Below are positions 6,097 through 47,462 of a stretch of DNA of 64,000 nt, piece by piece. The stretch covers positions 19,827-83,826 of the forward strand of contig CACJPC010000003.1 of NCBI GenBank assembly GCA_902595195.1. The letters run 5' to 3'. This DNA comes from an uncultured Candidatus Actinomarina sp. (GTDB taxonomy: Bacteria; Actinomycetota; Acidimicrobiia; Actinomarinales; Actinomarinaceae). The notes beneath the pieces are model-generated. The model had not been told where the DNA came from and did no database searches. It was given only the letters and a program-made list of their open reading frames with translations. The translations under genes and the position numbers were made by a program. Position 1 is the stretch's first letter. Each line of letters begins with the position of its first letter.

Positions 6097-6184
6097 AAAT
6101 CTAAAGACTACATTAAAAATTAATTTAGCGGTACTTTATTAATGTTAAATTAATGTAAATCTACGAAAAACTTAAAATAATAAT

Positions 6185-30190: not shown

Positions 30191-30293
30191 ACACTAAATA
30201 TTAATAGGTATAAGTTATATCAAATATTCAATTAAAAAGAAATATCTACACATATAAAAAATTCCAAATAATAAAGTTTAAAAGAGTTAAAAT

Positions 30294-31292
30294 TTGATAG
30301 TGAAAAAAATAATTGTCACCGGTTCATGTGGTTTTATTGGATACAACTTAATTAATTCGTTAAGTCATGTCGAAAACGTGATTGGAATAGACTCTCTTAA
30401 TAACGCTTATGACAATAACCTTAAGAAATTAAGGTTAGAAAACCTTAACAATCTTGAAAATTTTAAATATTTACAATTAAATTTTTCAGACAAAAATGAT
30501 TTACATAAAAATGAATCTATTTTTCACGATTGTGATGTCTTAATTCATTTAGGCGCTCGAGCGGGAGTAAGGCAAAGTTTTAATGATCCAGAAAAGTATT
30601 TAATGGATAATACACTTGGTACGATAAATTTATCATTACAAGTAAAAGAAAACAATATTCCTAAATTTATAATTGCGTCAACTTCATCAATTTATGGAGA
30701 TACAGGTGAACAATTAGCTGTCGAAAATAAAGATGAGCTTCTTTATCCACCATCAATTTATGCATCAACAAAATCATTCGGTGAAATTTTAGCTCAAAAT
30801 ATACTAGAAGATACAAATACTCACATTCAAATTCCTAGATTTTTTACAGTTTACGGTCCTTATGGAAGACCTGATATGTCAATTCTTAGATTTATACATT
30901 GGATTTGTAAAGGCGAAAAACTAATTCTTTATGGTGATGGTAATCAAAGGCGTTCTTTTACATATGTAGATGACATAGTTAATGGATTGATGGCGCTGAT
31001 GGAATACGAAGGTTCTGGTACTTTTAACTTTGGTTCCAACGAAACATGGTCGCTCAATGAAGTTATTGAGATTATTGAAATGAATACTGGGAAAAAAGCA
31101 GATATATCATTTGAAAAACGAGCTTATAAAGATGTTGACATTGTTCTTCCAAATCTAAAAAAATCAAATAATATTTTGAATTGGAAGCCTACAACAAACA
31201 TAAAAGACGGAATAATGAATACAGTTAATTGGTATTTAGCTAATCAAGAAAAGTTAAAAGATATTAAATTTAAATATGATTATGAAAAATAA
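30294..31292 (+). CDS. NAD-dependent epimerase (UDP-glucuronate 4-epimerase-like SDR)
   Basis: GSCGFIGYNL Rossmann motif, YASTK catalytic motif, and the DSLNNAYDNNLKKLRLENL segment typical of the UDP-GlcA 4-epimerase subgroup. TTG/GTG start. Confidence 0.7.
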   Translation: MIVKKIIVTGSCGFIGYNLINSLSHVENVIGIDSLNNAYDNNLKKLRLENLNNLENFKYLQLNFSDKNDLHKNESIFHDCDVLIHLGARAGVRQSFNDPEKYLMDNTLGTINLSLQVKENNIPKFIIASTSSIYGDTGEQLAVENKDELLYPPSIYASTKSFGEILAQNILEDTNTHIQIPRFFTVYGPYGRPDMSILRFIHWICKGEKLILYGDGNQRRSFTYVDDIVNGLMALMEYEGSGTFNFGSNETWSLNEVIEIIEMNTGKKADISFEKRAYKDVDIVLPNLKKSNNILNWKPTTNIKDGIMNTVNWYLANQEKLKDIKFKYDYEK

Positions 31293-32262
31293 TTTAAAAA
31301 AAGTAGTCATTACGGGTGGAGCAGGGTTCATCGGATCCAATTTAATTAGAAAATTAATTGAAAAAGATATAGAAAAAATTTTGGTGATTGATGATTTGTC
31401 TACAGGAAATATAGATAATATATCTGAATTTAAGGATAATAATTTAATTGAATTTGTAGAAAGTAGGGTTGAAGATTGTCAAAATCTAAATTCATTAATA
31501 GAAGGATATGATTTTTGTTTTCACTTGGCTGCTGGTGTAGGTGTTCAATACATTATGGAAAATGTTAGTAAGGCATTATTAACAAATATTGAAGGAACAC
31601 ATAAAATTATTGAATCATGTAAAGTAAATGGAATACCATTACTTTTGACTTCAACTTCTGAAGTTTATGGAGTTTCAGATGATCCAATTTGGACAGAAGA
31701 ATCGAAAAGTTTAATTGGCCCACCAACAAAATTAAGATGGTCATATGCTGCTTCAAAACTGATTGATGAATTTTTAGCACTTTCAGAATTTAACGATGGC
31801 AAATTAAATCCTATAATTGTTAGGTTGTTTAATATTATTGGAAATAATCAATTATCTAAATTTGGTATGGTAGTTCCAAAATTCATAGAAGCAGCTTTAG
31901 AAAACAAACCACTAATTATCCATGGAGATGGAACTCAAACAAGATCGTTTACTTGGGTTGGAGATGTTGTTAACTATTTTTATTTACTCGCGGAAAAGCA
32001 ACTTTATGGAGAAATTTTTAATATTGGACAAACTGAAGAAATTTCGATTAAAAATCTTGCAGAAATGATAATTAAGGAAACTGATTCAAAATCTGAAATT
32101 ATTTTTAAAACTCACAAAGAAGTTTATGGAGAAAGATTTGAGGATCCTATGCGAAGAACTCCTTCAATAAAAAAAATAGTCGATGCTACAGATTATTCTC
32201 CTACAATGACAATACCTGAAATGATAAAAGAAATTATAGATTACAAAAAACTAAATTCTTGA
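31276..32262 (+). CDS. extended SDR, ArnA-C / UXS-like UDP-glucuronate decarboxylase family
   Basis: GGAGFIGSNL, TSTSEVYG and LRWSYAASK (the RWxYxxSK pattern recalled from the ArnA-like subgroup). Confidence 0.65.
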   Translation: MIMKNNLKKVVITGGAGFIGSNLIRKLIEKDIEKILVIDDLSTGNIDNISEFKDNNLIEFVESRVEDCQNLNSLIEGYDFCFHLAAGVGVQYIMENVSKALLTNIEGTHKIIESCKVNGIPLLLTSTSEVYGVSDDPIWTEESKSLIGPPTKLRWSYAASKLIDEFLALSEFNDGKLNPIIVRLFNIIGNNQLSKFGMVVPKFIEAALENKPLIIHGDGTQTRSFTWVGDVVNYFYLLAEKQLYGEIFNIGQTEEISIKNLAEMIIKETDSKSEIIFKTHKEVYGERFEDPMRRTPSIKKIVDATDYSPTMTIPEMIKEIIDYKKLNS

Positions 32263-33395
32263 AAATATTAATAACTGTTGGAATTTATCCTCCAGATATC
32301 GGAGGGCCAGCGAGTTTTGTGCCAAAAATAGCCAAGATGCTTACTGAAAATAAACATGATGTAACGGTAATATGCCTCTCTGATAATAAAGTTTCAGATG
32401 ATGAAAATTTTAAGGTTAAAAGAATATTAAGAAATCAAAATTTGTTACTCAGATGGATTCAAACTATTTTTACAATAATCAAAAACGGTAGAAATGTAGA
32501 TTGTTTTTTTGTTAACGGCCTGCCTATGGAATCTTATGTGGCAAATCTATTTTTGAGAAAAAAATTAGTTAGAAAAATTGTAGGTGATTGGGCTTGGGAA
32601 AGAGGAAGAAATAAAGGACTTATCAACGAATCTTTTGATGAATTCCAAGAAAATTCTCATAATCTGCATCTTGAAATAGCAAAATTTTCTCGTGGATGGA
32701 CTGCAACTAAAGCTGATATCGTAATAACACCCTCAAAACATTTATCAAAAGTTGTTGAAAATTGGGGTGTCCAACCAAATAAATTAAAAATTATTTACAA
32801 CGGTACCAAGATAGTAACTGATAATATTTCAAAAACTAATAAAGGAATAGTAAATCTTATAACTGTAGGCAGATTAGCTCCGTGGAAAAATATTGATACA
32901 ATAATCAAGTCTGTAAATCTACTCAAACAATATGATATGAAATTTAAATTATTTATTGTTGGAAGTGGTCCCTTAGAATCTGAATTAAAAAAACTAGTTT
33001 CCGATTTAAATTTATCGTCAGAGGTTATCTTTACTGGTCAAAAAAAATATTCAGAATTAACTGAATATTATAAAAATTCAAATATTTACATACAAGCTTC
33101 TGGCTATGAAGGCCTTCCACATGTACTGCTAGAGGCAATAAACTTTGATTTATCAGTAATATCAACACCTATTGGTGGATCTAATGAAATATTGCAAGAT
33201 GGTAAAAATGGTTATGTTCTAAATTTAGAAAAAGGAAAAAAACCTAGCACTGAAAATTTAAAAAATATTATTTTGGAAACAATCAATAAAAAAGAATTGA
33301 CAGAAGATAAGAAAAAAAACGCAAAAATTTTACTCCATTCTATCTTTGATGAGAATAAAAATTTTCCAAAGTATCTAGAAATATTGACAAAATGA
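32259..33395 (+). CDS. glycosyltransferase family 4
   Basis: YEGLPHVLLEAINFDLSVISTPIGG E-x7-E motif and a typical N-domain. Confidence 0.8.
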   Translation: MKILITVGIYPPDIGGPASFVPKIAKMLTENKHDVTVICLSDNKVSDDENFKVKRILRNQNLLLRWIQTIFTIIKNGRNVDCFFVNGLPMESYVANLFLRKKLVRKIVGDWAWERGRNKGLINESFDEFQENSHNLHLEIAKFSRGWTATKADIVITPSKHLSKVVENWGVQPNKLKIIYNGTKIVTDNISKTNKGIVNLITVGRLAPWKNIDTIIKSVNLLKQYDMKFKLFIVGSGPLESELKKLVSDLNLSSEVIFTGQKKYSELTEYYKNSNIYIQASGYEGLPHVLLEAINFDLSVISTPIGGSNEILQDGKNGYVLNLEKGKKPSTENLKNIILETINKKELTEDKKKNAKILLHSIFDENKNFPKYLEILTK

Positions 33396-34516
33396 AAAAT
33401 TTATTATTTTACGGATCGACCAATTATGGTAAAAAACTGTCTAATTCAGATAATTTAAAGTTTATTGAACTAGATAAACATTTCAATACACATGTAATGA
33501 CTTTAGGGAATAACAGAGAAAATATTAAACACAATAATGTGCAAATATCTTATTTAAAAAAGCCAAAATTAATAATTTCACAATATTTATATTTTTATTT
33601 TTTTAATTTTAGAAATTTTAGAAAATATTGTTTTGAAAACAAAATTGATATCGTATCTGCAAAAGATCCCATTGCAGGATTTATCCCAGTTATGTATAAA
33701 AAAATCTATGACAATAATATAAAAATTATTATTGAACACCATGGTGATTTTTTAGACTTGTTGTTAAACCAAAGAAAATTTAACTTAAAATTCTTGATAA
33801 AAATAATCGCAAAAAGCATTTCAGAATTTACTTACAAAAATTGTGACTTTATACGTGGTGTAGAAAAAACATACACAGAGAAATTAGCAGATAAATACAA
33901 CAAAAACTACCACTACTTCCCTGCTTGGGTTGACTACACAATCTTTAAAAAAGAAAACTTAAATAGAAAAAATTTTTTGTTTATTGGAAATATCATTCCT
34001 CGCAAAGGTGTAGATTTTATAATTAAGAATTTCAATGACTTCTCCTTAAAAAATAATTTTAAAGAAAAGCTTTTAATTATAGGAGAAAATCAAAATTCTG
34101 ATTACTTTAATAAATGTATTGATTTTGTAAAACAAAATGAAATCAAAAATATTGAATTTTTGGGCAAGAAATCACAAGATGAAATTTCATACTTACTGTC
34201 ATCATCAAGATTGCTAATTATGGCTAGTAATTATGAAGGGTTGCCGAGAGTTTTAATTGAGAGCGGATTATGTGCAACTCCAAGTTTAGGGACAGACATT
34301 CAAGGAATTAAAGAGCCATTCGGCAGTGACGGAGGTACATTAATTTATCAACTTAATAATTCAGTTGAATTTAAATCACAATTAAAAATATTTGTTAATG
34401 ATAAAAATTTCGAGAATGAACTACAAAATAAAGCACACTCATTGGCAACTAAAATGTCGGGAGCAGATAGTTTTGGGGATAACTGGAATAGGTTAATTGA
34501 GTCATTATATGAGTAA
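33392..34516 (+). CDS. glycosyltransferase family 4
   Basis: NYEGLPRVLIESGLCATPSL E-x7-E motif. Confidence 0.75.
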   Translation: MKNLLFYGSTNYGKKLSNSDNLKFIELDKHFNTHVMTLGNNRENIKHNNVQISYLKKPKLIISQYLYFYFFNFRNFRKYCFENKIDIVSAKDPIAGFIPVMYKKIYDNNIKIIIEHHGDFLDLLLNQRKFNLKFLIKIIAKSISEFTYKNCDFIRGVEKTYTEKLADKYNKNYHYFPAWVDYTIFKKENLNRKNFLFIGNIIPRKGVDFIIKNFNDFSLKNNFKEKLLIIGENQNSDYFNKCIDFVKQNEIKNIEFLGKKSQDEISYLLSSSRLLIMASNYEGLPRVLIESGLCATPSLGTDIQGIKEPFGSDGGTLIYQLNNSVEFKSQLKIFVNDKNFENELQNKAHSLATKMSGADSFGDNWNRLIESLYE

Positions 34517-35540
34517 AAAACTTTTATATTTTAATCTTGCTTTAGATGAGAATGACACCTCTCTTGGTTTTGCAATTGATTGGATAAAAACTATAGCAAA
34601 AAATTATGATCATGTAGATGTAGTTACGTTAAAAAAAGTTTCTAATTTAAAGTTTCAAGAAAACATTAAAGTACATGGGGCTAAACCAAATAAATATAAA
34701 ATATACAAATATGTATACCTATTCAACAAAGTTAGAGAATTAACTAAAGAAAATACTTACGACAGATGCTTTTCACATATGTCCCCAATATCAATTTTAG
34801 TTAGTAGTTACTATTTGAAGAAAAATAAAATTAAATCGACGCTCTGGTTTACACACCCTGGTCCAAAATTTGGTATTAAAAAATTAATACTTTTTTTGAG
34901 TTTTCTTATTTCTGAAAATATTGTTACGGCTTCTACAACTTCGTTTCCTATTAAATCAAAAAAGGTGTCCGTCATAGGACACGCAGTAGATTTAGTAAAT
35001 TTTTCTAATAAAAAAGAAGAATACAAATTACATAATTTTTTAATACTTTCAAGAATTTCATCATCTAAAAACATTGAAATAGCAATTGATGGATTTTTAA
35101 ATTCAAAATTTAAAGATCGTAATCTTGACATAATTGGTGGACCGCTTAATAAAAATGATGAAGTTTACCTTGTTGAACTAATGAATAAATACTCTTCTAA
35201 TAATGTAAATTTTTTGGGAAAAATTAATCATGCAAATTTACCCGAGGTTTTAAAAAACTATGACGTTCATTTTAATTGTGCAGGTAATGGATTTTTTGAT
35301 AAATCCGTTCTTGAAACTCTCTCAAGTGAAATTATTAATTTTTATGTGAATGAAGATTTTAATTTGCTGTTTGATGATAATTCATATCAATTTAATGATT
35401 CTAAAGAATTAGCAAGAAAGTTAGATAATTTGATAAATTTATCTCATGAAGAAATTAAAAATACAATACATAAATCTAAAAAAGAATTACAAAATAACGC
35501 ATTAAGTTCTTTAAACAGCAGATTAGAACCTTATTTGTAA
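34497..35540 (+). CDS. probable glycosyltransferase (GT-B-like, divergent)
   Basis: Size, operon position after two GT4 genes and a weak GT-B-like layout. No clean motif. Confidence 0.4.
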   Translation: MSHYMSKKLLYFNLALDENDTSLGFAIDWIKTIAKNYDHVDVVTLKKVSNLKFQENIKVHGAKPNKYKIYKYVYLFNKVRELTKENTYDRCFSHMSPISILVSSYYLKKNKIKSTLWFTHPGPKFGIKKLILFLSFLISENIVTASTTSFPIKSKKVSVIGHAVDLVNFSNKKEEYKLHNFLILSRISSSKNIEIAIDGFLNSKFKDRNLDIIGGPLNKNDEVYLVELMNKYSSNNVNFLGKINHANLPEVLKNYDVHFNCAGNGFFDKSVLETLSSEIINFYVNEDFNLLFDDNSYQFNDSKELARKLDNLINLSHEEIKNTIHKSKKELQNNALSSLNSRLEPYL

Positions 35541-36466
35541 TTAGCAGAAATCCAGTCAATAGTTAATTTAAGTCCGTCTTCAAGTGAAGTTTTTGGTTTA
35601 TAATTTAATAATTCTTTTGCTTTAGTTAAATCAGGTTTTCTTTGTTTCGGATCGTTAATAGGAAGTTCATGGTACACAATTTTTGAATTAGAATTAGTCA
35701 ATTCTATAATTTTTTCTGCAAGATATTTAATTGTGACTTCGTTATCGTTGCCAATATTAAATACATCTGATTCTTCATGGTGAATAATTTTTAAGATTCC
35801 ATCTAAAGTATCTTCTATATACGAAAAAGATCTTGTTTGTTCACCATTTCCATAAATTGTTATTTCTTTACCTTTTAATGCTTGGTAAATAAAATTGGTG
35901 ACAACCCTTCCGTCATCTATTTGCATATTTGGTCCATAAGTGTTGAAAATTCTTGCAATACTACCATTTAAATTATGGGTTGTTATGTATGAATGAGTTG
36001 CAGATTCTGCAAATCGTTTAGATTCATCATACATACTCCTAGGCCCTAATGTGTTGACATTTCCCCAATACTCTTCGCTCTGTGGACTAATTTCTGGATC
36101 ACCATAAATTTCAGATGTAGAAGCTAAAAAGAATTTAGCATTGTGATGTTTACTTATTCCTAATGCATTAATAGTTCCAATGCTTCCTGACTTTAGTGTG
36201 TTGATAGGATACCTAGCATATGCTTTTGGACTTGCACAACTAGCTAAATGAACAACATAGTCAATCTTTTCATCAAAATAAATACTTTCCTGAATATCGT
36301 GTTCTACGAATTTAAAATTACTAAATTCTTTATATTTTTCTATATTTTTTAAATCACCAGTAATTAAGTTATCTATTACAGTAATCTGATTTGAATCATC
36401 TATTAATTGACCAATAAGATGAGAACCAATAAAACCTGCTCCGCCTGTTATTAAATAATTAATTAT
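35531..36466 (-). CDS. UDP-glucuronate decarboxylase (UXS-type extended SDR), full length with a non-canonical (ATA/ATT) start or read-through entry
   Basis: My manual translation shows the frame of the listed 167-aa ORF is open for 144 more codons up to 36466. That stretch encodes IINYLITGGAGFIGSHL..VVHLASCASP..LASTSEIYGDP.., followed by YDESK and NTYGP in the listed part. It contains no ATG/GTG/TTG/CTG. Confidence 0.75.
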   Translation of the reverse strand: MINYLITGGAGFIGSHLIGQLIDDSNQITVIDNLITGDLKNIEKYKEFSNFKFVEHDIQESIYFDEKIDYVVHLASCASPKAYARYPINTLKSGSIGTINALGISKHHNAKFFLASTSEIYGDPEISPQSEEYWGNVNTLGPRSMYDESKRFAESATHSYITTHNLNGSIARIFNTYGPNMQIDDGRVVTNFIYQALKGKEITIYGNGEQTRSFSYIEDTLDGILKIIHHEESDVFNIGNDNEVTIKYLAEKIIELTNSNSKIVYHELPINDPKQRKPDLTKAKELLNYKPKTSLEDGLKLTIDWISANYK

Positions 36467-37654
36467 TTACTCCCAAAATTTAATATATTCATACTCATTT
36501 AAGTTTCCAATTTCTTTTTCTATTTTTGTCTGAAATTTTTTATCAAGAGGATACATTTCAACAATTAATGATTTGTTTGGTAATTCAGAAATAAATTTAA
36601 TCGATTCATGGCTCTTAAAGTATTCATCATATACGAATACATTCCCATTATTAAGTTTATTGTACAAATCTATTGTCGGCGAATGCCTTAGGTCATCAGT
36701 ATTTTCCTTGAAAGCTAGGCCAATTAAAACTATGTTTATATAATTTTTCTCGACTTTTATTTTTTCTAGGTATTTTGCAAACCAACTTTTGTGTTGATTG
36801 TTTGATTTTAAAATTGATGAAATAAGCGGAACATCAAGCTCTTTCGATTTAGAAATCGATACGACTTCTGCTACATCTTTTGGGAAACAAGAACCACCCC
36901 AGCCAGGTGAAGGTCTGAAATACTCTAAACCTATTCTTTTATCCATACCTATTCCTTGTAAAGTTTGAGTCAAGTCACCACCTAGCTCTTTTATAATTTG
37001 GGAAGCTTCATTTACAAAAGAAAGTCTTAGTGGTAGATAAGCATTTGATAAATATTTTATTAATTGAGAACTGACTGGATCTGTAAAAATAACTTCTGAA
37101 TCTATTCCGGAATAAAGCTCGTAAACTTTTTTTGCATTCAATTCGTCTTTTGAACCTATTACAATTCTGTCAGGATTAAAAAAGTCACTAAATGCAGTAC
37201 CCTCGCGTAAAAATTCTGGATTAAAAATAAGGCTTTCTTCAGATAACTTACTTGATTTAATAACATCTGCTAAAGCTTCTGGATGGATTGTGGATTTTAT
37301 ACAAATGACTGTATCTTTATTAGACCTATCTTGTATTTCTTCAAAAACTTTATTTAAAAAACTTGTATCTACTTCATGAGTATCTAAAGATGGAGTCTGA
37401 ACGCAGACCATTATAACATCAACATTATCCCAAAAAATTTCATCATAATTATCACTGAATTTAACATTTTTGCCAACTACTTCATCATTTAAATATTCAT
37501 CTAATTTAGGTTCATAAAAAGGAGGTACTTTATTATTTAACTTCTTAATTTTTTCAGAATCAATATCTACAAATTGTACTTTGTGGTTTAAATGAGATAA
37601 TCCCAATCCAGTTATTAAACCAACGTATCCAACACCGATAACAACAATGTTCAT
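36467..37654 (-). CDS. ugd: UDP-glucose 6-dehydrogenase
   Basis: MNIVVIGVGYVGL Rossmann motif and GGSCFPKDV catalytic-Cys motif. I prefer the ATG at 37654 over the listed TTG at 37675. Confidence 0.9.
   Translation of the reverse strand: MNIVVIGVGYVGLITGLGLSHLNHKVQFVDIDSEKIKKLNNKVPPFYEPKLDEYLNDEVVGKNVKFSDNYDEIFWDNVDVIMVCVQTPSLDTHEVDTSFLNKVFEEIQDRSNKDTVICIKSTIHPEALADVIKSSKLSEESLIFNPEFLREGTAFSDFFNPDRIVIGSKDELNAKKVYELYSGIDSEVIFTDPVSSQLIKYLSNAYLPLRLSFVNEASQIIKELGGDLTQTLQGIGMDKRIGLEYFRPSPGWGGSCFPKDVAEVVSISKSKELDVPLISSILKSNNQHKSWFAKYLEKIKVEKNYINIVLIGLAFKENTDDLRHSPTIDLYNKLNNGNVFVYDEYFKSHESIKFISELPNKSLIVEMYPLDKKFQTKIEKEIGNLNEYEYIKFWE
36470..36474 (-). promoter_or_regulatory. Shine-Dalgarno-like GGGAG inside the last codons of ugd, 3 nt before ATA and 6 nt before ATT of the UXS frame
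   Basis: The minus strand reads TGGGAG TAA ATA ATT AAT. G-rich pentamers are rare in this AT-rich DNA. Confidence 0.4.
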
Positions 37655-37688
37655 AACTTGATGATAACGTTTCAATAACTTTATAATA

Positions 37689-38786
37689 ATGATAGTGATT
37701 TATTTTATTGCTCATTCTGAATGGATACTCCAAAGATCAAGAGCTGATATGGCAAGAAGTTTAAAATCTGATTTTAAAATTGTATCAATCTGTCCTGTGA
37801 GTGAATATGAAGCTAATTTAAAAGATGCCTACTATGAGTCAATTAATTGGAGTATTGACAGAACTAAATTGTTAGATATAAAAGGAATTTTAAAACTTAG
37901 GAAAATTATAAAGAATTTCAATTCTGGTGATATAGTTCATATTTTTACAATCAAATCTTTGTATCTCTTTATCTTTTCGTCATTATTTTTTAAAAAAGAT
38001 TTTAAAGTTATAGTATCAATTACTGGTTTAGGGTACCTATTTGCCGATACAATTTTGGCCAAAATTTTAAGAAATATAACTAGACCATTGATAAGGGTAA
38101 GAATAAATAGTTCGATAGATTATTTAATTTTTCAAAACAGAGACAATTTCCAAAAATTTGTTGATTACTCAAACTATAAAAATAATTCACAAATTATTTC
38201 AGGTAGTGGTTTGAACACAACAGAGTTTAATACTAAGAATACTTTTAACGAAAACATTAAAGTTATATTCGTTGGAAGACTTATGAGAGAAAAAGGAATT
38301 TATGAATATCTTGATATTGCAAATAGATTTAGAGATAAAGAAAACTTAACATTTTTTATTGCTGGAAAACCAGATTTTGGAAATAAAAGTAGCATAAGTG
38401 AGAGAGAATTCCATGAATTGCAAAATAATAAAAACATATCTTACTTAGGTGAAATAGATGTTCAAAAAGAATTAGCGAATTATGATCTACTACTCCAGCC
38501 AAGTTATCATGAAGGATTTTCTAGAATCCTAATAGAAAGTATATACGCAGGTGTTTATTGCTTAGCTAATAATATTTATGGAATGAAAGAAATTATTGAA
38601 AAGTCAAATTTTGGTATTCTAATAAATAACAATGATGTAAAAGAATTTGAAATCGAAATTAACAATTTTATGAAAAATAAGAATAATATAAGCTTTGATT
38701 CTGCTAGAAATATCATTAAAACCAATTACTCTTTAGAAGCAATTTCACAACAATTCAAAGAATTATATTATGAACTTACTGAATGA
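37689..38786 (+). CDS. glycosyltransferase family 4
   Basis: YHEGFSRILIESIYAGVYCLANNIYG E-x7-E motif. Confidence 0.8.
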   Translation: MIVIYFIAHSEWILQRSRADMARSLKSDFKIVSICPVSEYEANLKDAYYESINWSIDRTKLLDIKGILKLRKIIKNFNSGDIVHIFTIKSLYLFIFSSLFFKKDFKVIVSITGLGYLFADTILAKILRNITRPLIRVRINSSIDYLIFQNRDNFQKFVDYSNYKNNSQIISGSGLNTTEFNTKNTFNENIKVIFVGRLMREKGIYEYLDIANRFRDKENLTFFIAGKPDFGNKSSISEREFHELQNNKNISYLGEIDVQKELANYDLLLQPSYHEGFSRILIESIYAGVYCLANNIYGMKEIIEKSNFGILINNNDVKEFEIEINNFMKNKNNISFDSARNIIKTNYSLEAISQQFKELYYELTE

Positions 38787-39807
38787 TTTCCAAGTTTCAA
38801 TATATGTAGCATCAATTGTTGCGTTTTTCTTATCGACACTGTTCTGTTTTTTTATAATAAGAATAAATAAAAATTTTAATTCTAAATCAAACGACCAAAA
38901 AAGGTTAAACAGTCTAAACATCGTTCCGCTTGGCGGAGTAGCAATGGCATTAAGCTTTTTTATATCGGTACGTCTACTAGGTCAAGCTGATTCAAATGTA
39001 GTAAATGTATCCATTTTTGCTTTAGCAATATCTATTTTGGGAGTTGTTGATGATTTTTTAAATCTAAATTGGAAAATGAAAATAGTATTTCAATTTTTAT
39101 TTGTAAGTTTTCCAATTTTTTTATTAAATCAAACAATAAATTTTGAAATTCTTTTTGGAATAAATTTTTCTGGAAGATTAAATTATGCACTGACTATTTT
39201 GTGGATTTTGGTTCTTATGAATTCAATTAATTTTATTGATAATATGGATGGTTTTGCTGCAATAAATAGTTCATTTATTTGTATAGCATTGACAGCTTTA
39301 TCATTTGTTTTTAATCAAAATTATCTTGCAGATGTAAGTTTTGTATTACTTTTTACTATTTTGGGATTTACAATATATAATTTTCCTCCAGCACGGATAT
39401 ATATGGGTGATTCAGGAAGTTTGTTTATAGGGTTTATTTTTGGTTTTATAAGTATTCTTTTTGATTGGAACCCGACTGGTCAAAGTTATTTGTACAGTTC
39501 AATAGCACCAATTTTCTTATTTTTTACAATGCCTTTGTTAGATTTTTCAACAGTTTTTATACACAGAATAAAAAACAATATTTCACCAACGACTGGTGGT
39601 ACGGATCATATATCTCATAGATTGTTAAATCAAGGCTTAAGTGTTAAGTCTGTACTTCTTTTATTTTCATTATTAAATATTTTTATTTTTTTGCTGTTGG
39701 CTTTAACAATAGCTTTTGAGTCAATGTCGGTGATTATTTTTCTTATATATGTAATAATTATTTTGACTCTATTTATTAAATTTCAAAAACTTGAACCACT
39801 AAATTAA
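38770..39807 (+). CDS. polytopic phosphoglycosyl transferase, MraY/WecA (glycosyltransferase family 4, polyprenyl-phosphate HexNAc-1-phosphate transferase)
   Basis: NSINFIDNMDGFAAINS and YMGDSGSLFIGF motifs with ~10 TM segments. Confidence 0.9.
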   Translation: MNLLNDFQVSIYVASIVAFFLSTLFCFFIIRINKNFNSKSNDQKRLNSLNIVPLGGVAMALSFFISVRLLGQADSNVVNVSIFALAISILGVVDDFLNLNWKMKIVFQFLFVSFPIFLLNQTINFEILFGINFSGRLNYALTILWILVLMNSINFIDNMDGFAAINSSFICIALTALSFVFNQNYLADVSFVLLFTILGFTIYNFPPARIYMGDSGSLFIGFIFGFISILFDWNPTGQSYLYSSIAPIFLFFTMPLLDFSTVFIHRIKNNISPTTGGTDHISHRLLNQGLSVKSVLLLFSLLNIFIFLLLALTIAFESMSVIIFLIYVIIILTLFIKFQKLEPLN

Positions 39808-40509
39808 TTTTTTAAGTTTTTTTATTCTTTCTTCTGTTCCTGCATCTATCCACCAAGAATTAATAATTGAATAATTAAGTAAATTATTTGTTAAATATAA
39901 TTTATTAAGGTCAGTTATTTCTAATTCCCCTCTTGCTGACGGATTAAGCTGTTTAATAAATTCAAAACAAGTTTTTTCATAAATATAAACTCCAACTACT
40001 GCAAGAGAAGATATGAACTCTTTAGGCTTTTCATGAATATTTATCAAATTGTTATCACGGTCTAGTTCCATTACGCCAAATTCATCAGGATTATTAACAT
40101 TGATGGCAAAAATTTGTGAACCTTTAAAATTTTTAAAATCAATTCCTTCTAATGGATTTTCACCAAAAAAATTATCTCCTAATATAAAAGTAACTAAAGA
40201 ATCATCATCAACTTTTGATTCTGCAAATGAAAGTGCGTGTGCAATTCCTTTTGGCTGATCTTGAACAACAAAACTAATATTAAGATTTCTATGATTTTGT
40301 TTAATGTCATTCACAATTAAATCATGGAAGTCTGGGTTAGTAATGACGACGAAATCTAAGAAACCCCAAGACTTCAATTGATTAATTTGAGTTGAGATCA
40401 TGCTCATACCATCAATATCAATTAGTACTTTAGTATGGAGATTATCTTTAAAGTTTTTTAACCTAGTGCCTAAACCACCAGCAGCTATTACAGCATAATT
40501 TTTTCTCAT
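39799..40509 (-). CDS. sugar-1-phosphate nucleotidyltransferase (RmlA/short NTP-transferase family)
   Basis: AVIAAGGLGTRL signature plus KPKGIAHAL- and GDNFF-like motifs. 236 aa. Confidence 0.8.
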   Translation of the reverse strand: MRKNYAVIAAGGLGTRLKNFKDNLHTKVLIDIDGMSMISTQINQLKSWGFLDFVVITNPDFHDLIVNDIKQNHRNLNISFVVQDQPKGIAHALSFAESKVDDDSLVTFILGDNFFGENPLEGIDFKNFKGSQIFAINVNNPDEFGVMELDRDNNLINIHEKPKEFISSLAVVGVYIYEKTCFEFIKQLNPSARGELEITDLNKLYLTNNLLNYSIINSWWIDAGTEERIKKLKKLI

Positions 40510-40548
40510 TTTTCTATATTAAAAGGACACTGTTATTAAAGTTGTAAT

Positions 40549-41661
40549 TTGATTATGAAAATAAATAAACAAGTAATTTTTCTAGGTTTTATTTTAATTA
40601 TAAGTTTTGTTGCTTATAATTTAATTCCAAATTTCGAACGGGAACAATTCAATCCCGATATAGTTGAAGAAATTTCAAGTGGGACCATAACAACTACAAC
40701 TATTGAGTCAGAGGAAAATAATATTGTTGAAGAATCTGGAGATATTTCTGAAGAGGAAGAGATTTTTCAACCTAATTTATATGACAGCTTGTTAATTAAT
40801 AATCAAACAAAAAGAATAGATAAAAATTTTACTTCATACTTAATTATTGGAAGCGATGAGCGAAGTTCAAACTCATCAGCGAGTAGAGGAAGTGTAAAAG
40901 GGAGTCGTGCAGATGTAATAATGATTGTCATGGTTGATGAGCAATCAAATGTTTCACTTGTATCTTTGCCAAGAGATTTATTGATTGAAGATCCGTGTAC
41001 AAATAATATTCAAAGAATTAATAGCTCTTACACAAACAACGGTTGCGGTACTAACGCAGAAAATTTATCTGCTGTAATACTTAATATTACTGGGCTAAAA
41101 ATAAATAATTTTGTTAAATTTAGCTTCGAAGGCTTTGAAGAAATTATAGATTCTCTTGGTGGAGTTGAAATATGTGTAAGTGAAACCCAGAGAGAAGGAT
41201 ATTCATTTGAATTACAAAAAGGTTGTAACTTAGTTAATGGTGAAATTGCACTTAATTGGATCGTTTCAAGAAATACCGAAATACTTGACGGAGAAAAATT
41301 AATTGATGTAAATGGTGAAGATATTTCAAATTGGAAACCAATGCCTGGAGTAAGCGACCTTAAAAGAATTGAAAAACAGCAACAACTAATTCTTTCTTTA
41401 ATGGAAAAAATCAATAACTTTGAATCATTTAATAGTTTTTTAGATTTTGTAAAAGCATTAGAAAATGCTTTTACTATTGATCAAAATATATCAATAATTG
41501 AGGCTACAAGCTTACTATGGGATTTTAGAGAATTGGATTTGGAAAACGTAAATAAACTTACAGTACCTACATATAATTACAAAACTCAAAATGGTGCCCA
41601 AGTGTTAATTCTTGATCAAAACTTTTTTGAATTTATATCTTCTCAAGGTTTAGTTGACTGA
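40549..41661 (+). CDS. LCP (LytR-CpsA-Psr) family glycopolymer-to-peptidoglycan ligase
   Basis: N-terminal TM anchor and acidic linker, then LIIGSDER..SRADVIMIVMVD..SLVSLPRDL, the LCP core motifs. Confidence 0.85.
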   Translation: MIMKINKQVIFLGFILIISFVAYNLIPNFEREQFNPDIVEEISSGTITTTTIESEENNIVEESGDISEEEEIFQPNLYDSLLINNQTKRIDKNFTSYLIIGSDERSSNSSASRGSVKGSRADVIMIVMVDEQSNVSLVSLPRDLLIEDPCTNNIQRINSSYTNNGCGTNAENLSAVILNITGLKINNFVKFSFEGFEEIIDSLGGVEICVSETQREGYSFELQKGCNLVNGEIALNWIVSRNTEILDGEKLIDVNGEDISNWKPMPGVSDLKRIEKQQQLILSLMEKINNFESFNSFLDFVKALENAFTIDQNISIIEATSLLWDFRELDLENVNKLTVPTYNYKTQNGAQVLILDQNFFEFISSQGLVD

Positions 41662-44033
41662 TAATTTATACCAATACTTATTATTAAAAGCACAAACATA
41701 TCTGGAGAATAAATCATATCATTTGTAAGATTTAAAACAAAAAACATCATCATTGCTAGGAATGTAAATGCAGAATTAGAATTTGCTAATATGAATTGTT
41801 TTAAAATAAAAATGAAGAATACTAAATAGAATAAAATTGACATAAAAATACCAAACTCTACGCTGAATGTGAGATAACCATTATGCGCTGTAGTAAGTTG
41901 GCTTAAAAAAGAAGGATCTACAATTGGAGGACTCGTATTAGAAATTTTTCCATTTTTTTGTATTAAGACTCCGCTTCTTAAACTTTTATCACCAATATAA
42001 TTTGCATCTAAAAAAACACCATCTGGGTTTGCCCAATAAAAAAATAATCTCCCGTCGTCAATTTCTAATTTCCAAGACTGTACTTGACTATCTTTAATTG
42101 AAGTATTCGAAATCAATGTTTGCCTCTCCCATGGAATCTCAGGTAGTGATAGGTTCAAAATTATTTCAAAACTTTCACTAAAGTCAAAACCGTTTGGTAC
42201 AGCTAACCAATATTTATTGGGTGAAAAAAGTTTTAATCCATCAGATTCATATGTGATTTTTGCGTTATATGAATTTAATTCATTTGGTTTGTACACAAAA
42301 TAATCTTGATTTAAAGATTTTTCATCAAAAATAATTTTCTCATTTTTATTTTGTGTACTTACATATAATTCTTTCACTGTTGCATCTAAGAATGTATTAC
42401 CAAATGACTGTCCGTCAGAATGGCCCCCTATTTCCAAGAACGAAGTGTTTTTATTTAAATTAATAATATTTCCTGTAGTTCTTGAGTATCCAATCATATC
42501 CCAATTTTCAAAATCATCAGAAGTGTAAAAAGTTATTTTACTTCTTGGGAGTATTCCGTCTTGTTTTTCAAACTTAAACTTAATATAACCTTCGACATTT
42601 CTAAAATTGCACTCTGAACAAAATTTTTTGTAATTTTCAAGAGTGACATAATTGTTGCCAATGCTTATCTGCTCAACAATTACAGCAAGCTCTCCGTGAG
42701 CTAACTCTCTACTTTCACACCCATAACCTACAAAGTCTGTACATGGCACAAATAATAATCCCTGAGGTATCTCTTCCTTGCTCTCAATATAATTTGATTG
42801 ATCATAAAGATAATCAACAAAACAATAAAATTCGCCCCTCAAAATATTTAAATTATTGTTATCAAAACATTCAGAATCATTCATTAATTCAAGTATTTCT
42901 GAATTTGTTACTTGGTAGACTGCAGATAAAAAATCAGCAAGCAATGTTTGCTTAACTCTTACATGCTGACATGTAAGCCTATCCTCAGAGCACTCAGCAA
43001 TTAATTTACTTTGAACTAAAATCTCGTATCCGCCACCAGAAGTTCCAATAAAAAAATCTGCTTCTGAATCTCTGTGTTCTACAGGTGTAATCCCTAACTC
43101 GACTTTATTTAAATTAATATTTAGGTTTTCTTCTAATATATCAGGATTGATAGAAAGAAAATAGTCTTTGTAAATTCCTTCAACATAATTTCCAGGGCCC
43201 AATCCTTTAAAAATACTCATATTTTCAAATGCAATTTGAGTTAAAAACCCTCTATCGCTTTCCTTTAATAAGATTTTTGAATCACCAAAATATAAAAATC
43301 CTAAAAGACCTGATATAGCAACTAACAATGTAATAAAAATACTTTTAAAGTTCTTGTTATAAATAAATATAAAAATAAATATACCCACAAATAAAGAGAG
43401 ATAAGCACCTCTAGAATATGTAACAAAAATTAAATAAACATTTAATAACGACAGAATAAGAAAATATTTATTCTTTAATTCAAAATATATATATAAAGAT
43501 AAAAAAGTAAGAATTGAAAACACGCCCCCTGCAACATTTGGACCAGATCCCTGATAGCCAGAAAGTCTACCTCTGTTGAAAAAATCAGGATTTTCATAAT
43601 AATAACTAATCCAACCTGTAGTATTGTCAACAAATGATAGTTGGAAAATTGATGTCAAGAAATTAAGTAATGTTACTGCTGCAAAAGGGATTAAGAAATA
43701 TTGTAATTCATGCGTAGACTTGCTATTTATGTATGATGTAAATAAATATCCAACTACTGAATAAAAAACTAATCTCAATATAAAAGCACTTATACCGTAT
43801 ATAAATGTAGACAATAACAGGACTAGAATTAATGAACCCCAAAGTTGTGTACTGGTTTCTTTGAAATCAACTGAAATTGAATTCTTAACAAAATCATGAA
43901 TTAATAAAATAAAAAATAAGATCATCAAAAAATCTGAAAACTCAATTATTTCTAATCTAAGAAATCCAGGAGGAGAAACTAAAGAAACAGAAACAATAGA
44001 ACCTAAAATAAATAATTTCAATTTTGCTCTCAA
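41643..44033 (-). CDS. O-antigen ligase/polymerase-like membrane protein with a ~450-aa Cys-rich, LamG/ConA-like extracytoplasmic insert
   Basis: 796 aa. N-terminal ~250 aa polytopic with YSRGAYLSLFVG (Wzy_C-like), a long soluble middle region, and 3 C-terminal TM segments. Start uncertain: the TTG at 44033 lies 1 nt from the tRNA 3' end, and another TTG sits at 44021. Confidence 0.6.
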   Translation of the reverse strand: MRAKLKLFILGSIVSVSLVSPPGFLRLEIIEFSDFLMILFFILLIHDFVKNSISVDFKETSTQLWGSLILVLLLSTFIYGISAFILRLVFYSVVGYLFTSYINSKSTHELQYFLIPFAAVTLLNFLTSIFQLSFVDNTTGWISYYYENPDFFNRGRLSGYQGSGPNVAGGVFSILTFLSLYIYFELKNKYFLILSLLNVYLIFVTYSRGAYLSLFVGIFIFIFIYNKNFKSIFITLLVAISGLLGFLYFGDSKILLKESDRGFLTQIAFENMSIFKGLGPGNYVEGIYKDYFLSINPDILEENLNINLNKVELGITPVEHRDSEADFFIGTSGGGYEILVQSKLIAECSEDRLTCQHVRVKQTLLADFLSAVYQVTNSEILELMNDSECFDNNNLNILRGEFYCFVDYLYDQSNYIESKEEIPQGLLFVPCTDFVGYGCESRELAHGELAVIVEQISIGNNYVTLENYKKFCSECNFRNVEGYIKFKFEKQDGILPRSKITFYTSDDFENWDMIGYSRTTGNIINLNKNTSFLEIGGHSDGQSFGNTFLDATVKELYVSTQNKNEKIIFDEKSLNQDYFVYKPNELNSYNAKITYESDGLKLFSPNKYWLAVPNGFDFSESFEIILNLSLPEIPWERQTLISNTSIKDSQVQSWKLEIDDGRLFFYWANPDGVFLDANYIGDKSLRSGVLIQKNGKISNTSPPIVDPSFLSQLTTAHNGYLTFSVEFGIFMSILFYLVFFIFILKQFILANSNSAFTFLAMMMFFVLNLTNDMIYSPDMFVLLIISIGINYQSTKP

Positions 44034-44034
44034 G

Positions 44035-44108
44035 TGGGCCTGGCAGGACTCGAACCTACGACCGACGGATTATGAGTCCGTTGCTCTAACCAACTGAGCT
44101 ACAGGCCC
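44035..44108 (-). tRNA. tRNA with CAU anticodon (elongator Met, or Ile2 if lysidine-modified)
   Basis: Hand-folded cloverleaf: GGGCCTG/CAGGCCC acceptor, GCTC-AGTTGGTTA-GAGC D arm, ACGGA-CTCATAA-TCCGT anticodon arm, GTAGG-TTCGAGT-CCTGC T arm, discriminator A. It lacks the initiator features (no 3 G-C pairs in the anticodon stem, and 1:72 is paired). CCA is not encoded. Confidence 0.9.
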
Positions 44109-44115
44109 CAAATAT

Positions 44116-44403
44116 TTATGAAATTACTGATTGAACTTTTAATGCAATACTCATATCGCCAGCAACTTTTAATTTTCCAGTCATAAAAGCAGCTTGTGGA
44201 CTTGAAGAACCATCCATAATTGATTGCATAGTTTCAGCATCTGTTGAAATTGTACATGTAGCTTCATTATCGTCTGATGTGATTTCACCACTATTTCCAT
44301 CAATTAAAACTACATTTTCGTCAACAACAAATTTTACTGAACCACCTAATACACTAAGGTCTTTTCCTTCAGCTCTCTCTTTTACAATTGCTACTAAATC
44401 CAT
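44116..44403 (-). CDS. SCP2 sterol-carrier-like domain protein
   Basis: 95 aa ending ..AAFMTGKLKVAGDMSIALKVQSV, the typical SCP2 C-terminal pattern. Start set to the ATG at 44403 because the listed N-terminal 24 codons run through tRNA-Asn. Confidence 0.7.
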   Translation of the reverse strand: MDLVAIVKERAEGKDLSVLGGSVKFVVDENVVLIDGNSGEITSDDNEATCTISTDAETMQSIMDGSSSPQAAFMTGKLKVAGDMSIALKVQSVIS

Positions 44404-44448
44404 TATTCCTCCATTCACTTTAAGTATAGTGAAAATTAATTTGTATAG

Positions 44449-44521
44449 CTCCGAGGGTGGGACTTGAACCCACAACCAACGGATTAACAGTCCGCTGCTC
44501 TGCCAATTGAGCTACCTCGGA
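44449..44521 (-). tRNA. tRNA-Asn (GUU)
   Basis: Hand-folded: TCCGAGG/CCTCGGA acceptor, GCTC-AATTGGCA-GAGC D arm, GCGGA-CTGTTAA-TCCGT anticodon arm, GTGGG-TTCAAGT-CCCAC T arm, discriminator G. Confidence 0.9.
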
Positions 44522-44544: not shown

Positions 44545-46170
44545 TTAAATAGTATTCTGATACATTTCTTTTTTCTTTTTGATGTCTTCTACTTCCTGAA
44601 GAAGCTCGAAATTCTTATCATCTGATTCTTCAAATTCTTGGATAAGTTCATCGATTCTTAGGTTTGCAAAATGTAAATACAATCTTGAAACTGCTTCTAA
44701 GTGCTGCTCTTTTGTGTAAGAGATATTAAGATAATCTTCTTTTTTTGACTTTTCATTTCTAATATCATTAACTAATTTTTTAAATTCAGAATTTAACTCT
44801 ATCAACTGGTCAATTTCTTCACTTGGACTAAATTCATTAGAAATCATTTCTGCAATTATTAAATCTTTAAAAATTGAGATAGAACTTATAGTTTGTTCTG
44901 TTACATCTTCTTTTTCGTCTGAAGTTTGAAATTTTAATTCCTTTTTAAGTATGTCTTTGGCCGTGTTTAATTTTGAAGATAATAAATCTAATGAGACATC
45001 AACTTCAAGAGGACTTAGGTTAGATGTTATTTTCATAAAATATTTAAAAATACTTTTTTTATCTGATGTGCTTTCAATAAATTTATTAATCAAAAATTCA
45101 ATTATTTCAAGATTATCTTTAAGAACACTACTGAAAATATCTTCATCTTCTTCATACAATTCTGAAATATCTTTATATTTTTCCGGTAAATTGAGGCAAT
45201 GTATTTCTAGTTGATTAGAAACTTGATTTTTAATTTCTAGAACTCTTTCAGTTGCCTTTAGTCCTGCTTCATCGTTATCGAAACAAAGTAAGATTTTATT
45301 CGTATAGCGTGAAACAGCTTCTAGCTGTTGAATCGTGAGAGCAGTACCTGACGGTGAGGCACTATTTGGAAAACCTAATTGGTTTAATGATAAAACATCA
45401 AAGTAGCCTTCTACTAAAAATGCATACCCTTTCTTCTTTACAGAAGATATGAATTCCTTTGTGAAATACAAATTCCTGTTTTTTTTATAAAGAACTGAAT
45501 CTGAACAATTTAAATATTTAGGACCAAAATCTTCGAGTGCTCTTCCACCATAAGCAATGGTTTCAGTTCTAAAGTTTAGAATTGGAAACATGATTCTATT
45601 TTTAAATAGAAAATTATCATTACTAGAGATAAATCCTAATTTTTTTAAATCAAAGTCAGAGATTTTATTTTTATCACAAAACTTTTGAAATTCTTCAACA
45701 TTTGAATCAATAAAAGATATGTCATATTTTTTTAAATCCTGTTCATTGAACTTTCTAGAAGTAAGGTACTCTTTTGCTTTTTTAGATTTATTTGAATCCA
45801 TCATTTCTTTAAAATATTCATCAATGAGATTGATTTTTTGTTGAAAATTTTTAAAATCGTTATTCTGACTAGTTTCGGTATAGGTAAGTTTGAATCCATA
45901 TTTTTCGGCAACTAATTCAACTGCATCTTGAAACTCCAAATTATTAACTTCTTGTACATATTTATATATGTCACCACCCATTTTGCATCCAAAACAATGA
46001 AATAAATTTTCGACGTCTGTAAAACTCATGCTTGCGGTTTTTTCACCATGAAAAGGACACAACGCCATCCCTTTAGTTCCTCTAAGTTTTCCAGTTGTAG
46101 TAGATAAAACAAAGTCGCTAATTTTTGATCTTTTTTTTAAATCTTCGATTGATTGCTTTGATATACCCAT
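44545..46170 (-). CDS. dnaG: DNA primase
   Basis: Zinc-finger motif CPFHGEKTASMSF..CFGCKMGGD and Toprim motifs (VEGYFDV, CFDNDEAG). Confidence 0.9.
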   Translation of the reverse strand: MGISKQSIEDLKKRSKISDFVLSTTTGKLRGTKGMALCPFHGEKTASMSFTDVENLFHCFGCKMGGDIYKYVQEVNNLEFQDAVELVAEKYGFKLTYTETSQNNDFKNFQQKINLIDEYFKEMMDSNKSKKAKEYLTSRKFNEQDLKKYDISFIDSNVEEFQKFCDKNKISDFDLKKLGFISSNDNFLFKNRIMFPILNFRTETIAYGGRALEDFGPKYLNCSDSVLYKKNRNLYFTKEFISSVKKKGYAFLVEGYFDVLSLNQLGFPNSASPSGTALTIQQLEAVSRYTNKILLCFDNDEAGLKATERVLEIKNQVSNQLEIHCLNLPEKYKDISELYEEDEDIFSSVLKDNLEIIEFLINKFIESTSDKKSIFKYFMKITSNLSPLEVDVSLDLLSSKLNTAKDILKKELKFQTSDEKEDVTEQTISSISIFKDLIIAEMISNEFSPSEEIDQLIELNSEFKKLVNDIRNEKSKKEDYLNISYTKEQHLEAVSRLYLHFANLRIDELIQEFEESDDKNFELLQEVEDIKKKKEMYQNTI

Positions 46171-47462
46171 TATATTTTTGAGAAATAATCAAGAAGTTCC
46201 TCTATTTTTATTCGTTCCTGATCCATTGAATCTCTATTTCTTATAGTGACTGATAAATCTTCTAAAGAATCAAAATCTATAGTTACACAATAAGGGGTCC
46301 CAATTTCATCTTGTCTTCTATACCTTTTACCTATTGATTGAGTTACATCAACTTCTGTTCTATAAAATTTCTGCAAAGTTTGTTTTATATCATTTGAAAC
46401 TTTGATTAATTCTTCTTTTTTACTCAATGGTAGAATACCGATTTGGATAGGTGCGATTTCAAAATTAAATCTAAATAGCGTTCTAGTAGTATCATTAATT
46501 ACTTCTTCATCGTATGTTGAACATAGTAAAGCAAATAGTGTTCTTGTCAATCCCCCTGCAGGCTCAATTACAACTGGTACTATTTTCTCATTTTTTTCTG
46601 AATCAAAATATGATAAATCTTTTCCACTAGAGCTTTCGTGTGAACTTAAATCAAAACTTCCTCGATTTGCAATGCCTTCAAGCTCACCCCATCCCCAAGG
46701 GTAATCAAATTCAATGTCTACAGTTTTAGATGCATAATGAGCTAATTCGTTTTTTTCATGTTCTCTTAACCTGAGTTTCTCTTCTGGAATGCCTATCCTC
46801 TTGTACCAATCAAGTCTCTTATTTACCCAGAAATCAAACCATTCATTTTCATTTTCTTTTTTACAAAAATATTCAATTTCCATTTGTTCAAATTCTCTAG
46901 TTCTGAATATAAACTGACCTGGAGTAATTTCATTTCTAAATGATTTTCCAATATTAGCAATTCCAAACGGAAGTTTTGCTCTCATTGTTCTTTGAACATT
47001 CTCAAAATTTACAAATATACCTTGTGCTGTTTCTGGTCGTAAATACACTGATGAGTTTTCATTTTTTACTGGGCCTATGTTTGTTTCAAACATAAGATTA
47101 AATTGACGCGGCTCTGTTAAATCTTCTTTTTTTAGATTTTCTGGCACTTGGTCAGCTCTAAATCTTTCACCTGTAGGTTTATGATCTACCATAGGGTCTG
47201 TAAATTCAGCTAAATGGCCAGATGCTTTCCATACTTCAGAACTTTGAATAATAGCTGTATCAATAGGAAATATAGATACTTTGCTATCTTGATTTAAGTC
47301 TTTCCACCAGCTTCCAGAGATATTGTTTTTAAGCAAAGCACCCAATGGACCATAGTCATAAGAGCTCCTCAATCCGCCATATATTGATGAAGCATTAAAA
47401 ACAAAGCCTCTAGCATTTGCTAACTTTACAATTTTATCGAATAAGTTATCAATTTTTTCCAT
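46170..47462 (-). CDS. glyQS: glycine--tRNA ligase (homodimeric GlyQS type)
   Basis: Class II motifs (YGGLRSSYDYGPLG, FRNEITPGQFIFRTREFEQMEIEYF) and a C-terminal anticodon-binding domain. Confidence 0.95.
   Translation of the reverse strand: MEKIDNLFDKIVKLANARGFVFNASSIYGGLRSSYDYGPLGALLKNNISGSWWKDLNQDSKVSIFPIDTAIIQSSEVWKASGHLAEFTDPMVDHKPTGERFRADQVPENLKKEDLTEPRQFNLMFETNIGPVKNENSSVYLRPETAQGIFVNFENVQRTMRAKLPFGIANIGKSFRNEITPGQFIFRTREFEQMEIEYFCKKENENEWFDFWVNKRLDWYKRIGIPEEKLRLREHEKNELAHYASKTVDIEFDYPWGWGELEGIANRGSFDLSSHESSSGKDLSYFDSEKNEKIVPVVIEPAGGLTRTLFALLCSTYDEEVINDTTRTLFRFNFEIAPIQIGILPLSKKEELIKVSNDIKQTLQKFYRTEVDVTQSIGKRYRRQDEIGTPYCVTIDFDSLEDLSVTIRNRDSMDQERIKIEELLDYFSKI

Follow-up and report, generated by a model that had tools for sequence, protein, structure and literature searches.

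The DNA stretch analysed here, a 64,000-nucleotide part of contig CACJPC010000003.1 of an uncultured Candidatus Actinomarina sp. (referred to in full length as the window), carries on its minus strand a uxs gene, which encodes a UDP-glucuronate decarboxylase-like extended short-chain dehydrogenase/reductase (SDR) and is placed directly behind ugd, a gene of the UDP-glucose 6-dehydrogenase family. Comparison with related loci makes it very probable that uxs is functional and is translated from an AUU codon (ATT at 36463-36461) and, judging from the alignment of the homologous junctions, this ATT occupies the ancestral start position. The sequence GGGAG at the end of ugd appears, from its conservation and its covariation with ATT, to act as a Shine-Dalgarno (SD) element for uxs.

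On the minus strand, to which all coordinates of the junction refer, ugd ends with ...AAA TTT TGG GAG TAA (...KFWE*), followed by ATA ATT AAT TAT TTA ATA ACA GGC GGA GCA GGT TTT ATT GGT TCT CAT. The GGGAG (36470..36474) derives from the last two ugd codons, TGG GAG, and is located 6 nt before ATT. Behind it come the ugd stop codon TAA (36467..36469), 3 nt upstream of the UXS start, a 3-nt ATA (36464..36466), regarded as a non-coding spacer and not as a start codon, which varies among relatives, and the ATT itself (36461..36463), the putative initiation codon, recognized by its position and its codon-level conservation. The frame that follows the TAA is the same as that of ugd and encodes IINYLITGGAGFIGSH, the start of UXS. 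It is free of stops between 35534 and 36466 (311 codons) and its first 144 codons include no ATG, GTG, TTG or CTG, which is why the list of open reading frames (ORFs) of the window shows UXS just as a 167-aa tail (35531-36034). Counted from ATT, the gene spans 35531..36463, i.e. 310 codons and the stop TAA (35533-35531). A preliminary description of this DNA had reported both the absence of a canonical start over 144 codons in frame behind the ugd stop and the GGGAG at 36474-36470, and the sequence and its translation confirmed both observations. GGGAG occurs 25 times in the window, the two strands taken together. Of the 71 ORFs in the window that measure 100 codons or more from stop to stop, UXS was the sole real gene with a long start-less leader; all other leaders of at least 25 codons belonged to shadow ORFs opposite a longer gene, and no further start-less genes were found in this set.

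The protein encoded by the start-less frame is a complete UXS. Its 311-aa translation aligned to human UXS1 (PDB 4gll) over residues 4-305 of the window frame (E 1.6e-93). The best PDB matches were four UXS1 entries (E ~1e-93), followed by the next family at 4e-44, and the Pfam models Epimerase and GDP_Man_Dehyd were matched along the whole protein. None of the NCBIfam models scored above its curated cutoff against the UXS translation, hence no curated equivalog call was obtained. The NAD-binding Rossmann motif GxxGxxG is present (TGGAGFIGSH, residues 7-16, aligned to the UXS1 motif) and lies wholly inside the part without a canonical start, and the catalytic Ser/Thr-Glu and Tyr-x-x-x-Lys residues are found in LASTSEIYGDP and YDESKR, which align with lastsevygdp and ydegkr of UXS1. 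Since homology to UXS1 starts at residue 4, the N-terminal half is genuine UXS, as the preliminary description had proposed for the missing Rossmann half, and at most ~3 residues can precede the homologous region; together with the lack of a canonical start in 144 codons, this leaves no other start possible. The product is a predicted UDP-glucuronate decarboxylase-like enzyme, which would form UDP-xylose or the 4-keto intermediate.

The fragment delivered by gene callers (167 aa, 35531..36034) begins at an internal Met just ahead of YDESK and is the ORF with the only canonical start. The idea that this C-terminal product, initiated at ATG 36034, is the only one made and functional can practically be dismissed, as neither the NAD-binding Rossmann fold with GxxGxxG nor the catalytic residues of TSE would be part of it, and the 143 codons upstream of it are constrained no less than the downstream ones. 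The 167-aa fragment is an annotation artefact and marks no gene product boundary.

The upstream gene is, by its sequence, a nucleotide-sugar dehydrogenase of the Ugd type, with putative substrate specificity. Its product scored 327.6 bits against TIGR03026 (cutoff 189.8) and matched all three UDPG_MGDP_dh domains (PF03721, PF00984, PF03720). Translation of ugd likely starts at ATG 37654 (MNIVVIGVGYVG) and not at TTG 37675, chosen by the ORF tool, which gives a gene of 36467..37654 (395 aa); ugd ORFs of related loci encode 394-412 aa. The gene adjoins uxs, and its enzyme would supply the substrate for the predicted conversion of UDP-glucuronate (UDP-GlcA) to UDP-xylose, a purely contextual argument for this activity.

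In order to place the junction in an evolutionary context, 62 ugd-uxs junctions, including that of the window, were collected from scans of Ca. Actinomarina genomes and metagenomes and aligned on the invariant YLITGGAGF anchor (the loci are given L numbers). The closest genome match was found in a Candidatus Actinomarina single-cell genome (95% amino-acid identity); other matches in single-amplified genomes (SAGs) and metagenome-assembled genomes (MAGs) of Actinomarina showed 82% and ~65% identity. The window and 35 other loci share the arrangement TGG GAG-TAA/TAG-(NNN or NN)-ATT-AAT/AAA-TAY-YTN, i.e. GGGAG-stop-N2-3-ATT. These 36 ATT-type junctions carry no canonical start, L032/L033 excepted, which have a TTG in frame that lacks an SD. 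In the remaining 26, the position of ATT or the codon preceding it is taken by ATG or TTG. GGGAG was present in 36/36 junctions of the ATT type, versus 0/26 of the ATG/TTG type. The stop-to-start distance never fell outside -1 to +3 nt across the 62 junctions and amounts to +3 nt in the window. The ugd stop was TAA, TAG or TGA, nearly always TAA in the ATT-type clade, where L001 has the single TAG. Four independent metagenome assemblies (L021-L024, 99% identity) contain a near-identical junction, with one synonymous TAT/TAC change in L023, and the same architecture was detected in 31 further loci.

Comparison of individual relatives revealed what the ATT replaces. L003 has TGA-ATG-KYLITGG, L004 TAG-TTG-RYLITGG and L005 TAG-ATT-ATG-KYLITGG; at the codon homologous to the starts of L003-L005, ATT-NYLITGG is found in the window, L001, L002 and L006. 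More generally, ATT aligns with ATG/TTG of the outgroup clades and of L052, and it is located one codon downstream of ATG in L030/L031 and L054. In a neighbour-joining (NJ) tree of the UXS proteins all ATT-type genes form one clade (74-99% amino-acid identity), and the ATG/TTG types, like distant UXS such as those of Omnitrophota (MNILVTGG...), take outgroup positions, which indicates that ATT is derived from ATG. An alignment of this kind had been proposed previously; it shows that within TAA-ATA-ATT the spacer varies, while ATT is invariant in the 36 loci.

A few of the collected loci deserve a separate comment. L006 (PACV01000059.1), with an ATT-type junction, comes from a MAG labelled Flavobacteriaceae bacterium NAT163; it is a 12-kb contig with 27% GC, of which 6.9 kb is collinear with Actinomarina SAG loci. 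With the metagenome loci L039 and L043-L046 it shares 91-95% identity, and it probably belongs to Actinomarina and was mis-binned. In the sister contigs L025 (LULK01004816.1) and L034 (LULP01008838.1) uxs has 319 and 298 codons, respectively, versus 310, and the ugd frame of L025 is broken (150-aa ORF); these anomalies may reflect in-frame indels combined with a real ugd lesion, or assembly noise.

The N-terminal half of UXS is, on the evidence of its substitution pattern, translated, and purifying selection acts on the whole of the intact gene. Nei-Gojobori dN/dS, calculated within the ATT clade, amounted to 0.077 for codons 2-143 and 0.097 for the C-terminal half, with a mean dS of ~1.4, and 136 of the 142 third positions in the N-terminal half were variable. 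Translation of this half follows from these values and from the uxs ORFs of the complete relatives, which are all intact at ~310 codons. The frameshifts or stops in the N-terminal half of relatives that had been named as a sign of decay were thus not found in complete ORFs, and the view that the gene is not a dead pseudogene was borne out. That gene callers find nothing except the 167-aa fragment could point to a pseudogene, a recent loss of the start, or an assembly or sequencing error. Such an explanation is extremely improbable, considering that many independent SAGs, MAGs and metagenomes yielded the same junction at 35 other loci, that the start-less half shows a dN/dS of about 0.08 at saturated dS, and that loci with amino-acid identities of 74-99% are not copies of one assembly. 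The preliminary description had listed sequencing error or very recent start loss among its explanations; with ATT in 36 loci, neither is tenable.

Selection is also visible at the level of single codons. Ile codons were compared in 32 distinct ATT-type coding sequences (CDS). Of 16 columns with invariant Ile, 15 switch among ATT, ATA and ATC, and the proposed start alone is fixed as ATT. The last ugd codon is always GAG in the ATT type. In these genes GAG constitutes only 11% of Glu codons (69 vs 547 GAA), and synonymous variation is seen in each of the 5 conserved Glu columns. The invariance of ATT, set against 15 varying Ile columns, and that of GAG, in spite of its rarity, indicate that both ATT and GGGAG are kept by selection acting on nucleotides and not on amino acids.

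These data also bear on the question of which near-cognate codon is used. The AUA immediately behind the stop (36466-36464) is itself a near-cognate start, listed in translation table 11, and, besides the window, 18 other loci have ATA as the first codon past the stop. Initiation at AUA instead of AUU is nevertheless very unlikely: the spacer is not conserved in the ATT clade, where it may be ATA, AAA, ACA, ATT or ATC, or 2 nt (AG or AA); its distance to GGGAG, only 3 nt, is too short for an SD; and in most relatives the canonical start is aligned with ATT and not with ATA. The earlier suggestion of coupled initiation at AUU or AUA is thereby narrowed to its first part, in keeping with the invariant ATT, and its second part is contradicted by the variable spacer.

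A different explanation would be read-through of the ugd stop, resulting in a bifunctional Ugd-UXS fusion of ~706 aa. In the window and in most relatives both genes are indeed in one frame with a single stop between them, a fact which the preliminary description presented as one frame of 714 codons. The shared frame exists in the window, but it is incidental, since it is not conserved among relatives: six loci (L032/L033, L052, L054 and L077/L078) have the ugd stop in another frame than uxs. The identity of the stop varies (TAA/TAG/TGA), and the ATT clade almost always uses TAA, the most efficient terminator. The first codon past the stop is not conserved either (I, K or T). A search for RNA structure at the junction, a feature that would speak for read-through or for coupling of the unfolding type, found none (minimum free energy -12.2 kcal/mol, z = +0.53). 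Read-through leaves unexplained the invariance of the ATT codon and its covariation with GGGAG, and we consider the fusion highly improbable. The 3' end of ugd also holds, in the +1 frame (36464-36499, minus strand), a short ORF, ATG AGT ATG AAT ATA TTA AAT TTT GGG AGT AAA TAA (MSMNILNFGSK*), whose stop shares one base with the uxs ATT (TAATT). A frameshift from this ORF into uxs was rejected, as a slippery site is missing and stops break up the small ORF in the L006/L039 subclade; the resemblance of its MNIL to the N-termini of distant UXS (MNILVTGG) was judged a coincidence.

The case for initiation at AUU is complemented by the history of GGGAG. In the NJ tree, the ATG revertants placed inside the ATT clade have lost GAG. 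The change of ATA to ATG in L030/L031 is accompanied by that of GAG to GAT, L052 has an ATG start and GAT as the last ugd codon, and L054 has TAATG with GAC as the last ugd codon, its former ATT having drifted to ATA. Such covariation would be expected where a weak start is compensated by a strong SD. It could also be envisaged that AUU is used in purely SD-independent termination-reinitiation, and that GGGAG is kept for the termination context or for the C-terminus of Ugd. The SD-poor genome would fit this possibility, and coupling without an SD has been documented (PMC12548453). We regard it as unlikely, because GAG and GAA are synonymous, so that protein constraint cannot account for the invariance, and because GAG is lost exactly where ATG is regained.

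Several observations weigh against initiation at AUU from a GGGAG element. Firstly, the covariation comprises two or three independent reversions and one deep split, and is not statistically strong alone. Secondly, the genes of the window are mostly devoid of a recognisable SD: an SD-like 4-mer (GGAG, GAGG, AGGA or GGGA) situated 3-11 nt before a plausible start was found for ~5/49 long ORFs (the ORF starts scanned include those of 3508-6135, 21007-22182 and 44545-46188). In a genome that looks poor in SDs, the conserved GGGAG ahead of ATT in uxs stands out. Thirdly, in L032/L033 (spacer of 2 nt, UXS 91% identical) the spacer shorter by 1 nt puts a TTG, within TTTTGGGAG, in frame; owing to this frame offset the two loci count against read-through and do not themselves prove the use of ATT. 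Finally, AUA and AUC initiate in Escherichia coli about as well as AUU (10.1101/063800), and such parity does not explain the strict conservation of ATT in this clade.

According to the mechanism that we propose, the initiator tRNA would read AUU as fMet, giving MNYLITGGAGF..., and the GGGAG supplied by the last two ugd codons, 6 nt upstream, would position the start. The close stop-start spacing (3 nt) makes termination-reinitiation coupling probable, i.e. ribosomes ending ugd would re-initiate 3 nt past its stop; de novo binding of 30S subunits to the SD may be an additional route. In E. coli, AUU yields 1-2% of the AUG level with the main reporter and 0.02-3% across constructs (10.1101/063800), and this weakness leads to the expectation of UXS far below Ugd. 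UXS is probably made at a small fraction of Ugd, the weak AUU most likely setting its level so that only part of the UDP-glucuronate pool would be converted into UDP-xylose. A low level might even be adaptive, although this is speculation: UDP-GlcA may have other uses, and UDP-xylose feedback-inhibits Ugd enzymes. More tentatively, and with a rather low probability, AUU combined with a strong SD may represent, beyond a weak start that is merely tolerated, a selected translational throttle, kept clade-wide in an SD-poor and regulator-poor streamlined genome. If so, UXS output would be tied to Ugd translation, IF3 and initiation fidelity, hence to growth state, and start-codon logic of the infC kind would have been co-opted to set UDP-xylose flux for a cell-envelope glycan.

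The AUU start has direct consequences for annotation, as gene callers miss it and truncate uxs in the public calls found. In a public protein collection the exact 167-aa fragment was present on 182 contigs, and neither full-length version of the window UXS was found there. The cluster of this fragment has 195 members, and the 15 listed (P0001-P0015) are 107, 167, 290 or 314 aa long. Among the members listed, the calls of 107, 167 and 290 aa lack the Rossmann (NAD-binding) motif; those of 290 aa begin at an internal ATG (MDESNQ...), downstream of GxxGxxG, and the 314-aa call begins at the TTG inside TTTTGGGAG in loci of the L032 type. With the full-length UXS absent from the collection, metabolic reconstructions will score UDP-xylose synthesis as broken or absent in this lineage of very abundant marine bacteria. 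In the papers on Actinomarina genomes (PMC7771536; bioRxiv 10.64898/2026.04.03.716425) the terms "start codon" and "glucuronate" are absent, and "xylose" appears only for a ribose/D-xylose transporter.

The genes surrounding ugd and uxs are devoted to glycan synthesis. The region 30291-44521 encodes two SDR epimerases/dehydratases, four GT4 glycosyltransferases, a WecA/MraY-type transferase, a nucleotidyltransferase, an LCP ligase and a Wzy-like protein; its GC content is 26-29% and the gene set ends at tRNA genes (44.0-44.5 kb). This fits the hypervariable, tRNA-bounded "glycotype" island fGI1 of the cell envelope, described for Actinomarinales (PMC7771536; bioRxiv 10.64898/2026.04.03.716425). 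The ugd ATG (37654, minus strand) and the ATG of a divergent GT4 glycosyltransferase gene (37689, plus strand) are only 34 bp apart (37655-37688), so both promoters must overlap coding sequence or each other. A promoter and terminator scan of 35300-37950 gave 13 promoter-like matches, compared with 16.5 expected from shuffles, i.e. not above chance. An Rfam scan of the window yielded three tRNAs and no rRNA. One tRNA (44034-44108, minus strand) was identified by ARAGORN as tRNA-Met(CAT); its acceptor end is paired at 1:72 and its body is Ile-like, so that it is probably a tRNA-Ile2 (lysidine-modified, reading AUA) and not an initiator or elongator Met tRNA.

Comparison with known systems shows that initiation at AUU is a known kind of mechanism, a non-canonical start, encountered here in a new gene and a new lineage and backed by unusually clear comparative data; no new mechanism is involved. 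As regards the protein, the window UXS aligns over its full length with human UXS1 (PDB 4gll, 2b69), with GGAGFIGSH, STSEIYGDP, YDESKR and DGRVV common to both; the human enzyme has a eukaryotic N-terminal extension, whereas the window UXS, a bacterial, cytosolic protein of 310 aa, is devoid of it.

AUU is the confirmed start of only two E. coli genes, infC (encoding IF3) and pcnB (10.1101/063800). As in uxs, AUU stands there on an ordinary conserved gene whose orthologues use AUG, GUG or UUG (10.1101/063800). The AUU of infC is part of an autoregulatory loop in which IF3 discriminates against its own start codon, and no such loop is evident for uxs. In contrast to infC and pcnB, the putative AUU start of uxs follows an upstream stop by 3 nt and is accompanied, in a genome that looks SD-poor, by a conserved putative SD.

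With respect to coupling, the closest counterparts are galT/galK and rplK/rplA, experimentally coupled gene pairs of E. coli with a stop-start spacing of +3 nt (PMC12548453). They share with ugd-uxs both this spacing and the location of the downstream SD, a putative one in uxs, within the last codons of the preceding gene (PMC12548453). Their downstream genes start canonically, and the coupling of ugd and uxs is suggested by the spacing.

Finally, a statistical trend for weaker start codons to go with stronger SDs was described for GUG and UUG by Belinky, Rogozin and Koonin in 2017, whose study of AUG, GUG and UUG found a single AUG-to-AUU switch among 61,358 ancestral AUG starts (PMC5622118). 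The uxs junction resembles their cases in combining a weak start with a stronger and better conserved putative SD (PMC5622118), and differs from them in that AUU is fixed and maintained throughout a diverse clade, in which the revertants have lost GGGAG. It constitutes a clean natural example of the fixed switch from AUG to AUU, very rare in annotated genomes, accompanied by a putative compensating SD and by reversions losing this compensation, and offers a testable system for start-codon choice in an SD-poor, AT-rich streamlined bacterium.

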